The notes beneath the pieces are model-generated. The model worked only from the letters and a program-made list of their open reading frames with translations. It had not been told where the DNA came from and ran no database searches. Below, one piece after another: positions 35,973-41,701 of a DNA stretch of 55,712 bases; the stretch's first letter is position 1; every line of letters starts with the position of its first letter. Both the position numbers and the translations under genes were made by a program. This DNA comes from an uncultured bacterium (GTDB lineage: Bacteria; Chlamydiota; Chlamydiia; Chlamydiales; JAAKFR01): contig CAYLUD010000002.1 in NCBI GenBank assembly GCA_964386785.1, forward strand, positions 1-55,712. The letters run 5' to 3'.

Positions 35973-38900
35973 ATGTGGAAACTGCTTATACTGTCATTAT
36001 CAGTAGTCCGTGCTCTTATAGCAGAAAATTTTTTACAATCCGAATCCTTACCGGCATCAATAAAAGCAGATTATTTTTTAAACGATTCTTTGAATGAATT
36101 TGTTACCTCTCGAGATTTAGGGATCGAAGACCGAGTTAATGTAGTGACTGGAGCCTACTCCACCTCACATATGGACTTGTCGATAGCTGGTATTCAACCC
36201 CTACAAGCCAGCCGCTTCTACTGGAGTGATGTCCCCTATGAAAGTCGGTATGGGGGATGGCTCTACAATCCTGAATCCCGCGTTACAGCTAATCTAGAGT
36301 GGAAGGATAGAAAAAAATTTATTTCTATTGCAGAGCCTCAAGGGGCTATTCATTCATTGGAAGAGCACTCTGGGCATACATTTCGCTTTCATACACCTAA
36401 GACGATGATGTCACGTGGGGGTGCACATCATCCAAGTTTATTGCGCATCGAATATTCCAAATGTGGCGACACAAAAAACAGCCATAGATGGCGTTATGAA
36501 GGCAAAATCATTAGTGGCGATGGATCCGAACGTTATTTTCAATCCCCTATGCACTCTTGGTTACATCGAGTAGAATGGACAGAGCGCACGGGCTCTATAT
36601 GGGGAGGGGGATCTAGTCTCCACTACGTGGCTACACCTAACGTGTGGACCCCCTACCAACTACCCCTCACAGAAGAGAAATTAGCTAATGGCAATCGGTA
36701 TCGATATCATTATCTAAATTGGAATGAACCTAAGGCGTACCCAACACCTGGTGTTATTCAACGTATCGAATCCTATTCAAGCCAAGGAGAACCTTTAGGT
36801 TTCCTTGAATGGGATTATCATCGAAACAAAAAAGAGGAGGTAGATCGAGTTACTGTACGAGGAAGTGATCGCCGATGCAGTACCCTGCACTACCAAGAAG
36901 GCCACCTTGTTTCCGTGCAGTCTTCTGGCCAACCGACTAGCTCGTATCGCTATCACAATCATCTTTTGGTGGAGCAAATAGAACAAGGAATACCTCTACG
37001 AATCGAATATGACGATCAAAATAGAGTGAGTCGACTACTAGCTCCTGTAGGCAATCAAGGCGAATTTGCTCCTGTGATGCAGTATCAGTACAGCTCGGGA
37101 ATGACGCAACAAACGGATGGCACAGGGGCCATTGTGCGCATACAAATGGACGCGAATCAACGAATCCTTGCAAGAGAAGAGTGGGCGCAGGGTCGCATAG
37201 CGAGACGCGAGTCCTATGTCTGGCAAGATCAAACCGGTCTTCTTACAGAAGAGCGAGTCGATAACGGAGCAGGAAAAACATATTTATCGCGTTACTACGA
37301 ATATGACAACTCTTTCAATCCCATCCAGATTCGTTGGGGTCAAGGGCAGGAATGGCGCTCCATACATCAACGTTTTTCTACAGAGGGACGCAATCTACTC
37401 TTGAGCCGCTGGGAAGAGGGGGGCTTACGCCACGAATATCGTTATGTCCCTGGCACTAACCTTTTGGCCTTTGAAGGTATTTATGAAGGCAATCAACTTC
37501 GTGTGCGTCATTTTTACACCTATGATGGTGCTGGTTTTTGCACAGAATCCATTGAAGATGACGGGACGGGTGAGCTACCGAACGACCTGCGTGGAGTGAC
37601 CTATCGACGCAAGGAAAAATGGTTTCGTAAAGGAGGGATACCTTGCTGTGGGTTACCGATTCGCAAAGAATCCTGGTCTTTAGATCTATCTGGCCAAGAG
37701 ATCTTGTTAGGAGCTGAAGAATTTCAGTACACACCAGCAGGTCTCATGACTGAACACCGCTTTTTCGATGATCAAGGGCGTTATGTCTATTCCCATTATT
37801 TTCAATATGATGATCAAGAACTCTGCATTATGGAACGTAGACCTGAAGGGGGCGAGCGTTATTTTTCCTACGATGCATCTCATCGACTCCTTGCAGTACA
37901 AGGACCCAATCCAGAAGAGGAAATCCGATATGAATACAATGCTATGGGTTTACCTATCTGTACGCAACAACATATAGGGGGGCAGTCGTGGATCTCGACT
38001 TCTCGTCTCTACAATCGACGGGGAGACCGATTGCAAGAAGTCGATCCGGCAGGTCAGGTTACCACCTTTCTTTGGGATGATTTGGGTCGCGAGGTTGCTA
38101 TTCTGTATCCAGATGGGGGAAAATATGAACGCCAATATGATGTCTTGGATCGCTGTATCGAAGAAAAAGACCCTCTAGGGTTTGTCACCAAATCGCACTA
38201 CAATGTCTTTGGAGATCTCACGTTAAAAGAATACCCTGACCGTAGACAAGAGCGGTTCGAATATGATTCTTTAGGTCGCTGTATTTTTCATGAAAACATT
38301 CTTGGTGCTGTCCATACATATCGATATGATGGATGGGGTCACATCCTCGAAGAGAAGGTCATAGATCGATCGGGAGTCCTTCTGCGTCATATCCAAAAAG
38401 AATGGTCTCCATTTTTTCAGATATCGGAAACGGAAGGAGAGCGAGTACGAAAATGGGTATATGATCGAGCAGGGCGTGTTCTCACAGAAATCGATGGAAA
38501 TCATACCAAACATCATACTTATGATACGTTAGGTCGACTTTCCGTTATCAAAGAGGGTGATATAGAACTCGTAACAGAGTATGACCTATGTAATCGCCCC
38601 TTGAAGAAAAGTACCCTCTATCGAGGGACTCTGCAACATCGAGTAAGCTACCAATATGACAACGCTGGCAAGCCAACTCGGGTAGATGAAGGTGAGCGAT
38701 CTACGCATACTGTGTATTGGGCTAACCACCAACCTCATCGTATTACGGATGGGGTGGGGGCTACAACCATTCAATACACAGAGTACGCAGGAGGACATCG
38801 CGATATTACGATAGACCCATTGGGCCGACGAAAAGAGATCTGGTATGATCCTTGTAATCGCCCTTGTCGAGAAGATCGATATGATGCTCACGACGTTTTA

Positions 38901-41150: not shown

Positions 41151-41701
41151 ACACTAAATATCCTTATACAATCTTATTTTCTATTATGAGCCTTTGCCTT
41201 TCTTGGACTTGGCCTCATTTTCCATATGAGCCCATCATCGACGGAGTGACAGCCGTTTTTTTCAAAGAATACATGAAACCTATGGGATATTGTAACGATG
41301 GCTACGGAGGTGAGATGCACGGAGATGTGAGGAGGGTCTATACATATTATGTACAAGAAGGCGAAATATCGATTGATGAGGCTCGCAGAGTATATCTGGA
41401 TGTGATGGAGGAATTGCTTACTCGCATCAATGCAACGAAGAAGTTGCGTCCTTACTTACACAACTACCCATTTCAAAGAAAAAACATACAGCTAGCTCTA
41501 TCTTGGCGACCTAAAAAAAAAACTCGATGGGAAGATGGAAAATTAACATTCATGTTTCTGAATAACAATGATCAATTGCTTTACTACAGTTACTCCGCAG
41601 ATCGTTCCGACAATGGACTATATGTAATTCATGCAGAATCCTATGTAGACGCTCTAGCGATTGTACGTGGGAAACAAGATACTCTTGGTCAAACGGAATA
41701 G
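41147..41701 (+). CDS. candidate cognate immunity protein of the RHS C-terminal domain (hypothetical, hydrophobic N-terminus)
   Basis: 184-aa ORF whose ATG overlaps the RHS TGA (ATGA at 41147..41150). N-terminal YTILFSIMSLCLSWTW signal/anchor-like segment. No family recognised; the call rests on position only. Confidence 0.45.
   Translation: MNTKYPYTILFSIMSLCLSWTWPHFPYEPIIDGVTAVFFKEYMKPMGYCNDGYGGEMHGDVRRVYTYYVQEGEISIDEARRVYLDVMEELLTRINATKKLRPYLHNYPFQRKNIQLALSWRPKKKTRWEDGKLTFMFLNNNDQLLYYSYSADRSDNGLYVIHAESYVDALAIVRGKQDTLGQTE

Follow-up and report, generated by a model that had tools for sequence, protein, structure and literature searches.

RHS proteins are annotated in Chlamydia-related bacteria, where they are functionally unstudied. 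In Waddlia chondrophila, the annotated rhs genes include wcw_0390 (rhs9) and wcw_0453 (rhs11) (PMC4989314, PMC7143554); rhs9 is bound by the regulator Euo (PMC4989314), and mass spectrometry of infected cells has detected the 200-kDa rhs11 product, which carries a predicted signal peptide, in their cytosolic fraction (PMC7143554). An RHS cluster has also been recognised among predicted chlamydial outer-membrane proteins (PMC2811131), and Zhang et al. (2012) described many RHS-linked toxin domains with signal-peptide (“T2SS”, type II secretion system) delivery in chlamydiae (PMC3482391). The subject of the present analysis is a further member of this already catalogued family: an RHS toxin gene with its downstream partner, in a stretch of 55,712 nucleotides from an uncultured bacterium of the Chlamydiales (GenBank assembly GCA_964386785.1, contig CAYLUD010000002.1, positions 1 to 55,712; hereafter, the window). 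The gene lies at 35973..41150 on the + strand (1725 residues plus a stop codon) and is defined by the list of open reading frames (ORFs) and by Pfam, NCBIfam and PDB sequence matches. An earlier reading of these nucleotides (the sequence-only reading) was right to identify an RHS toxin and overestimated its novelty, a large family having already been annotated in environmental chlamydiae; its tentative placing of RHS systems outside the described Chlamydiaceae repertoire needs the correction that the phylum already had such proteins, among them the Waddlia rhs genes, the RHS cluster and the domains listed by Zhang et al. (PMC4989314, PMC7143554, PMC2811131, PMC3482391).

The window protein resembles the Waddlia Rhs proteins in its phylum, in a mass of about 200 kDa and in a signal-like leader, the counterpart of their predicted signal peptide. 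With the Rhs effectors of type VI secretion systems (T6SS; 8cp6, 7q97 and 8h8a) it shares a DUF6531-type plug, a YD shell, an aspartyl-protease core and, both putative in its own case, an encapsulated C-terminal toxin and an adjacent immunity gene. Unlike those effectors, it has no PAAR, prePAAR or VgrG-binding N-terminus and begins instead with a Sec-type leader, and the distance from plug to core is about 1400 residues, as compared with 1065-1152 in the solved Rhs core chains. The Tc cocoons (TcdB2-TccC3, 4o9x; YenC2, 4igl; TccC2, 6l7i) match it residue for residue in the closing block, RYYxPxxxRWxxxDP...NPxxxxDxxGL with cleavage following, and free their cargo inside the cage, as is proposed for the window protein. 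Tc toxins differ in possessing a TcB half, a SpvB region and a TcA translocator, and in having no immunity gene; no SpvB or TcdB domain was found in the RHS protein and no TcA-like gene among the scanned ORFs of the window (all those of at least 120 residues lying outside other genes, compared with Pfam).

In WapA toxins, a signal peptide, RHS repeats and a C-terminal toxin are followed by an immunity gene, and delivery is independent of a T6SS. Sec-exported RHS toxins of this type occur in Bacillus subtilis and Streptococcus suis (PMC12704120). The window pair has the same layout, with the difference that WapA acts from a monoderm cell wall, whereas the window’s producer has an outer membrane to cross. 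Finally, Tle/Tli pairs combine a T6SS serine-hydrolase lipase, acting from the periplasmic side, with a signal-peptide or lipoprotein immunity protein. The window pair resembles them in joining a putative serine hydrolase to a predicted exported partner, with an RHS cage in place of VgrG/Hcp delivery; no Tle-family match of the tail (e.g., DUF2235) was obtained, either by sequence or with Pfam.

Profile searches with scores far beyond chance confirm that the window protein has an RHS/YD shell, a plug and an Rhs-associated core in front of a cargo free of repeats, as the features noted in the sequence-only reading had indicated. Pfam RHS_repeat matches with E=1.1e-45 and 153.6 bits (cut-off 22), and NCBIfam YD_repeat_2x (TIGR01643) with E=3.2e-32. 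The many YD repeats claimed in that reading were also recovered, with 13 found by a loose regular expression relative to 0.78 +/- 0.9 in 500 shuffles. PDB sequence matches comprise solved Rhs, Tc and teneurin-like cocoons (E=8e-29 to 6.5e-06), headed by the T6SS Rhs effectors 8h8a, Tse5 (8cp6) and 7q97, and solved Rhs cores match the shell over residues 604-874 and 1264-1459. The repeat shell (36285..40160, + strand; residues about 105-1396), delimited by RHS_repeat, YD motifs and solved-Rhs matches, is collinear with chlamydial RHS genes in four related contigs (L085, L086, L088 and L089). Upstream of the shell lies the DUF6531 plug (PF20148; 36129..36284, + strand; residues 53-104), which scores 28.9 bits against a cut-off of 24.1 and contains the motif VNVVTGAY...DLSIAG. 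At the N-terminus, a 17-residue leader read from the sequence, MWKLLILSLSVVRALIA (35973..36023, + strand), displays an n-h-c layout, and the plug starts within about 35 residues after it. A hydrophobic leader stands at the start of nearly all 67 long relatives (>1400 residues, window protein included; first 45 residues read), and on these two grounds the leader of the RHS protein is considered a Sec-type, signal-like peptide. The plug motif VNVVTGAY (residues 55-62; window 36135-36158) recurs as VNxxTGxY in 56 of these 67 proteins.

The shell closes with the Rhs-associated core, a predicted aspartyl autoprotease (40161..40346, + strand; residues 1397-1458), which matches TIGR03696 with 70.1 bits against a cut-off of 32.5. 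Its closing block, at residues 1411-1432 and 1440-1458, aligns free of gaps with TccC3, Tse5, TccC2 and YenC2; D1431, within TPDP, and D1454, within YDAYGL, coincide with conserved aspartates of all four proteins, the residues that we regard as catalytic in the Rhs/TcC aspartyl protease. A cut between L1458 and I1459 (YDAYGL followed by IDG) is predicted because L1458 lines up with the position at which the cleaved chains of known structure end (8cp6_B, 6l7i_G, 4o9x_A and 6h6g_A), and it would free a cargo of 267 residues. A corresponding D-x-x-G-[LMIVF] motif recurs in the C-terminal region of the family’s long proteins, most commonly in the form D-x-YGL. The leader, plug and core motifs quoted in the sequence-only reading were all located, at residues 1-17, 55-73 and 1411-1432/1440-1458, respectively.

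The cargo itself (40347..41147, + strand; residues 1459-1725) has no match in NCBIfam, nor in Pfam even at E<=10. When a profile of the tail was searched exhaustively against 1.84 billion cluster representatives, 1328 relatives were recovered at E<=1e-3 and 608 at E<=1e-10, overturning the view of the tail as a rare domain that a word-indexed search, with five relatives, had given. The best 150 of these 1328 are mostly proteins of 1450-2000 residues with the tail at the C-terminus, and all of the named relatives are chlamydial metagenome-assembled genomes (MAGs). RHS repeats were detected in all five of the RHS-bearing relatives scanned, and DUF6531 also in the three that are full-length.

An AlphaFold2 (AF2) model of the tail, built from a 28-sequence alignment, reached a predicted local distance difference test score (pLDDT) of 93.3 and a predicted template-modelling score (pTM) of 0.88; an earlier model from six sequences (pLDDT 34) was discarded. 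In the model, numbered from the first residue of the tail, the putative oxyanion-hole NG (residues 1535-1536 of the protein) comes after strand 71-76, and Ser155 (S1613 in HSRGG; nucleotides 40809-40811, + strand) sits at a nucleophile elbow between strand 148-154 and helix 156-168. Asp204, the putative acid (D1662; 40956-40958, + strand), follows strand 195-201, and His239, the putative base (H1697; 41061-41063, + strand), follows strand 225-228. As modelled, this order along the strands is that of a canonical alpha/beta-hydrolase. The triad is nearly invariant across 145 tails (S1613 100%, D1662 100%, H1697 99%), and other positions are also highly conserved (N1535 95%, G1536 99%, D1573 97%, K1581 83%, H1612 95%, G1615 94%). 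Foldseek comparison of the model with the PDB returned alpha/beta-hydrolases only, comprising lipases, cutinases, PETases and esterases, with 72 matches at E<=1e-3, a top E of about 1e-4 and TM (template-modelling) scores of 0.4-0.6. The tail profile, in turn, yielded 23 PDB sequence matches, all weak and all to lipases, cutinases or feruloyl esterases.

These features correspond to a toxin domain that has already been described. Tox-ABhydrolase-2, for which Pfam has no model, is characterised by the motifs NG, [DE], [KR], HSxG, D and H, is associated with RHS or FilH repeats and signal-peptide (“T2SS”) delivery, and counts chlamydiae among its phyla (PMC3482391). The tail’s N1535-G1536, D1573, K1581, H1612-S1613-x-G1615, D1662 and H1697 fit this published list. 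We conclude from the motif list together with the predicted fold that the cargo is a Tox-ABhydrolase-2-type serine hydrolase; its substrate is most likely a membrane lipid, and the enzyme would be an esterase or (phospho)lipase.

Contrary to the C-terminal variability that the sequence-only reading anticipated among relatives, the same tail family was found throughout, with tail identities of 38-53% and shell identities of only about 32-37%. In that sense, the sequences suggest a system that is not classically polymorphic: the toxin type appears constant and the shell diverges faster. For a strain-level comparison of tail swaps, no relatives of >90% identity were present in the databases, and each window protein queried, all of them on one NCBI contig of 77.7 kb, stands alone in its cluster at 90% identity. 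The RHS protein likewise found no match when 185,579 species-representative genomes were scanned. Two tail relatives, P0088 (L087, 3963-8429) and P0098, have the tail in an internal position, followed by a eukaryote-like Ser/Thr protein-kinase domain, and a third, P0102, continues for about 450 residues beyond the hydrolase tail.

The second gene of the pair, a candidate immunity gene (41147..41701, + strand), encodes 184 residues with an N-terminal hydrophobic leader and is defined by its ORF, its ATGA overlap and synteny. At the junction, GCCATGAAC, the ATG of the partner overlaps the TGA stop of the RHS gene (ATGA), an arrangement of translational coupling; the 267-residue non-repeat tail and the overlapping 184-residue ORF reported in the sequence-only reading are both present. 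No meaningful match to the 184-residue protein was obtained in Pfam, NCBIfam (E<=10) or PDB sequences. By profile, the family comprises 243 proteins, none with a Pfam domain, and the named members all derive from Chlamydiales or Simkania MAGs. In all seven related loci examined within the close tail clade (L003, L004, L085, L086, L088 and L089/L090), the RHS gene is followed directly by a homologue of 27-37% identity; of these loci, L085 comes from the closest relative genome (GCA_942490925.1), L086 from GCA_964350245.1 and L089/L090 from GCA_022599615.1, with the L088 locus on a contig of 2.58 Mb. The toxin/immunity layout first proposed for the pair is thus borne out as regards the linked partner, and not as regards a variable tail module on a conserved shell.

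All partner copies start with a hydrophobic leader, and several carry a lipobox such as VTSC or LTAC. The gene is also amplified in some of the related loci. For example, L085 has two copies (43% identity), and L089 has four in tandem (66-78% identity). In L086, three copies (72-79% identity) are interleaved with two tail remnants, one internally deleted and missing the Ser-Asp segment, the other C-terminal. In L003 and L004, a C-terminal tail fragment is followed by a further partner copy, which is complete in L004 and partial in L003. At the level of sequence, arrays of the partner together with tail remnants look like an immunity gene accompanied by poly-immunity arrays and orphan cassettes and unlike a housekeeping partner, and the 184-residue ORF probably encodes a secreted immunity protein to the tail. 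Zhang et al. assigned Imm-SUKH as the immunity protein of Tox-ABhydrolase-2 and stated that in chlamydiae the domain is found “independently of an immunity protein” (PMC3482391). The candidate immunity family, predicted to be secreted and roughly 170 residues long, is set apart from Imm-SUKH and represents the modestly new part of these findings.

On balance, it is somewhat probable that the locus is a two-gene antagonism module of a Chlamydia-related bacterium, comprising a Sec-exported cage, a lipase-like cargo and an immunity protein, with a bacterial target favoured. The 1725-residue protein would be exported by Sec via its N-terminal leader, and the RHS cocoon, closed by the DUF6531 plug, would enclose its own C-terminal 267 residues, as its family membership suggests. 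The aspartyl protease, through D1431/D1454, would then cut after L1458, as in the aligned structures, leaving the cargo free within the shell. Once delivered, the S1613-D1662-H1697 hydrolase with its NG oxyanion hole, for which fold and conservation have been given above, would attack a membrane lipid. The 184-residue partner, exported as a periplasmic protein or (in relatives) as a lipoprotein, would neutralise the hydrolase in the producer’s periplasm, a role to which linkage, leaders and amplification point. Exit across the outer membrane might proceed by a T2SS, vesicles or lysis, not by a T6SS, and the targets would be bacteria nearby, whether rival chlamydiae or co-symbionts, that share the host cell or vacuole. 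A bacterial target is favoured because the relatives carry 2-4 diverged tandem partner copies together with truncated tail remnants; an amplified, linked partner beside toxin remnants is a signature of bacterial antagonism and is not expected of a purely host-directed effector.

A number of points weigh against antagonism between bacteria. To our knowledge, there is no route by which a Sec-exported cocoon of about 190 kDa could cross the chlamydial outer membrane and enter another bacterium. Within the plug motif, the position after TG is Ala in the window protein and Glu/Asp in 35 of the 56 motif-bearing proteins (window protein included). In T6SS Rhs proteins, N-terminal autoproteolysis requires Glu at this position, and the step may have been lost in the window protein. 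The window itself has a single partner copy, with no tail remnant or orphan cassette detected by tblastn, and the tail family is the same on all relatives found, which amount to hundreds of related RHS proteins. No partner-gene homologue follows P0088 in L087, the sole kinase-fusion locus examined. As regards the enzyme, Zhang et al. saw nothing that tied Tox-ABhydrolase-2 specifically to characterised lipases (PMC3482391), and the presence of a Waddlia Rhs protein in the host cytosolic fraction points to host targeting (PMC7143554).

In a host-directed alternative, a genuine possibility that we nonetheless think improbable, the cocoon passes via Sec and then a T2SS or outer-membrane vesicles to the lumen of the inclusion or the cytosol of the host, in the manner proposed for CPAF. 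For Sec-dependent chlamydial proteins such as CPAF, the accepted route leads from the periplasm through a T2SS or outer-membrane vesicles into the inclusion lumen and on to the host cytosol (PMC7143554). The hydrolase would then act on host or inclusion-membrane lipids, and the partner would merely shield the producer’s envelope during export. An obligate intracellular life, and the T3SS (type III secretion system) genes and Inc-like neighbour in the window, are in keeping with such an effector, and the host is the target that Zhang et al. suggested for the Tox-ABhydrolase-2 of chlamydiae (PMC3482391). The fusion of the tail to a protein kinase with no partner gene (P0088, L087) is also in its favour; such fusions suggest a host-directed sub-lineage. 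Self-protection alone, however, leaves unexplained the 2-4 diverged tandem partner copies and the tail remnants beside extra copies, and the cocoon itself should shield the producer from its cargo. Moreover, the detection of Waddlia rhs11 in the cytosolic fraction of infected cells (PMC7143554) stems from a fractionation screen, and rhs11 may carry a different tail.

It has also been considered, as quite an unlikely explanation, that the locus encodes a non-toxic envelope protein, with the RHS shell as a teneurin-like surface, adhesin or outer-membrane component, the tail as a remodeller of the cell’s own envelope lipids and the partner as its regulator. The grouping of RHS proteins with predicted chlamydial outer-membrane proteins (PMC2811131), the wide conservation of the tail and partner pair within the phylum, a GC content near that of the flanks and a window free of mobile elements would all suit such a role. 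Against it stand the varying number of partner genes (one to four), the presence of several RHS paralogues in a genome, the degraded tail remnants, frame-broken copies and flanking transposases of related loci, and the fast divergence of the partner (27-37% identity); an intact autoprotease site that would free a caged cargo is, moreover, the hallmark of toxin delivery. Least probable of all, and indeed very improbable, is a conventional T6SS cargo with its PAAR, VgrG and Hcp genes and apparatus elsewhere in the genome: the best solved-structure sequence matches are T6SS Rhs effectors (8h8a, 8cp6 and 7q97) and the view is limited to 55.7 kb of the genome, but a signal-like leader leads into the plug with no PAAR, prePAAR or VgrG-binding region, nearly all listed long relatives begin with the same type of leader, and no T6SS gene was found among the scanned ORFs of the window or within 6-10 kb to either side of six related loci.

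Returning to the antagonism module, the analysis adds four points to the catalogued family. The tail family is large and, in its named members, entirely chlamydial; it has a partner family of its own, predicted to be secreted; related loci hold orphan remnants as well as poly-immunity arrays; and the toxin type appears constant on a faster-diverging shell. For a group of proteins that are annotated and functionally unstudied, the locus offers a concrete, testable model, which, if confirmed, would bear on superinfection and competition among the intracellular symbionts of protists and on the exit of large, Sec-dependent RHS cages from diderm cells that have no T6SS. It is tempting to go further and to suggest, tentatively and with considerable doubt, that obligate intracellular chlamydiae wage contact or proximity warfare on rival chlamydiae or co-symbionts in a shared host cell by means of a phylum-specific, T6SS-independent RHS-lipase, with a new family of periplasmic or lipoprotein immunity proteins amplified into arrays that resist the toxin variants of neighbours. 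In the view of Zhang et al. (2012), intracellular bacteria are largely without immunity genes and do not compete with conspecifics (PMC3482391). Chlamydial warfare of this kind, if true, would contradict that view, and it would mean that a Sec-exported RHS cage passes two outer membranes by some unknown route.

With regard to its surroundings, the pair is set among genes that are housekeeping, T3SS or RND-pump genes, or that have no family match. The gene order starts with rpsA-nusA-infB-rbfA-truB-ribF, ychF, sctU, sctV, copN, a CesT-type chaperone and malQ, and continues through fabG-fabD-fabH, recR, bamA, ompH, lpxD, glgP, ispG (GcpE) and a hemL-like aminotransferase to the RHS pair, which is followed by a radical-SAM hemW-like gene, an RND pump (OEP, AcrB, MFP), lgt and further housekeeping genes. 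We take this order to match the chlamydial core synteny known from C. trachomatis. The T3SS export-gate cluster sctU-sctV-copN-CesT-type chaperone lies at 10679-15573, and a second CesT-family chaperone at 54524-55042. No PAAR, VgrG, Hcp or other T6SS gene was present among the scanned ORFs of the 55.7 kb window, nor any T6SS gene in the 6-10 kb of sequence to the left and to the right of six related RHS loci. The scan agrees in this respect with the sequence-only reading, which had described the absence of PAAR, VgrG and Hcp nearby, a T3SS in the window and flanks of ispG-hemL and hemW.

That reading had also placed the locus in a streamlined chlamydial genome. The genome is chlamydial, as gene order indicates, and lies outside the genus Chlamydia; streamlining is not supported. 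SctV scores 582 bits over 366 residues against the C. pneumoniae CdsV cytoplasmic domain and 656 bits over 689 residues against the full-length 7alw chain, at a much lower bit density than against the CdsV domain, and the match of CopN to its C. pneumoniae counterpart reaches only 143 bits over about 366 residues. Among the matches listed, the closest SctV (76% identity) belongs to a MAG labelled “uncultured Chlamydiaceae bacterium”, where it lies on a contig of 1.8 Mb, with the remaining listed matches of the SctV genome scan being mostly distant T3SS and flagellar homologues and few informative chlamydial MAGs. A streamlined Chlamydiaceae genome is not indicated because CopN is weakly matched, relatives have contigs of 1.8 and 2.58 Mb, and an RND pump is adjacent.

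The GC content of the RHS gene (45-47%) is close to that of its flanks (44-47%), with the partner-gene region alone being lower (39%), and no mobile element was found in the window; recent horizontal acquisition of the locus was rejected for want of compositional support and of any such element. A second RHS gene or orphan cassette hidden in the window was likewise ruled out, as tblastn finds none. Little was learnt from scanning the locus for promoters and terminators, as promoter-like sites were fewer than in shuffled sequence.

Among the related loci, split-frame RHS homologues occur in three ENA long contigs (L003, 5794-11002; L004, 5598-10798; L088, 5108-10008) and are either pseudogenes or the result of long-read frameshift errors. 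Several transposase genes lie just downstream of the RHS locus in L003. In L085 (17205-19785 and 22711-25052), from the closest relative genome, two RHS paralogues (1683 and 1706 residues) about 7 kb apart are separated by a WD40 protein and by three Chlam_OMP (MOMP-like) genes in tandem, and RHS genes are therefore multi-copy in this lineage.

Finally, small ORFs flank the pair. Upstream and divergent, a 144-residue ORF (35140-35574, - strand) has two adjacent hydrophobic segments, LVVIAVIIATAGLIAASVAVF... and FIMGVGFGGGVLSLIGGMVLVM, giving it the bilobed layout that is typical of inclusion-membrane (Inc) proteins in chlamydiae; neither Pfam nor NCBIfam matches it, and its exact sequence is absent from the protein collection. 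Between the partner gene and the hemW-like gene, a 153-residue ORF (41986-42447, + strand), very acidic and coiled-coil-like, has no family match except a sub-threshold one to ZapD. Its end abuts the GTG start of the hemW-like gene, and an identical protein is found in Logan contig L001. Elsewhere in the window, ORFs with no Pfam match at E<=1e-5 include 26016-28448 (+ strand, 810 residues), 664-1497 (+), 17161-17667 (+), 25414-25809 (-), 50049-50519 (+) and 51954-52475 (-), and such Pfam-less ORFs may encode lineage-specific chlamydial proteins or effectors.

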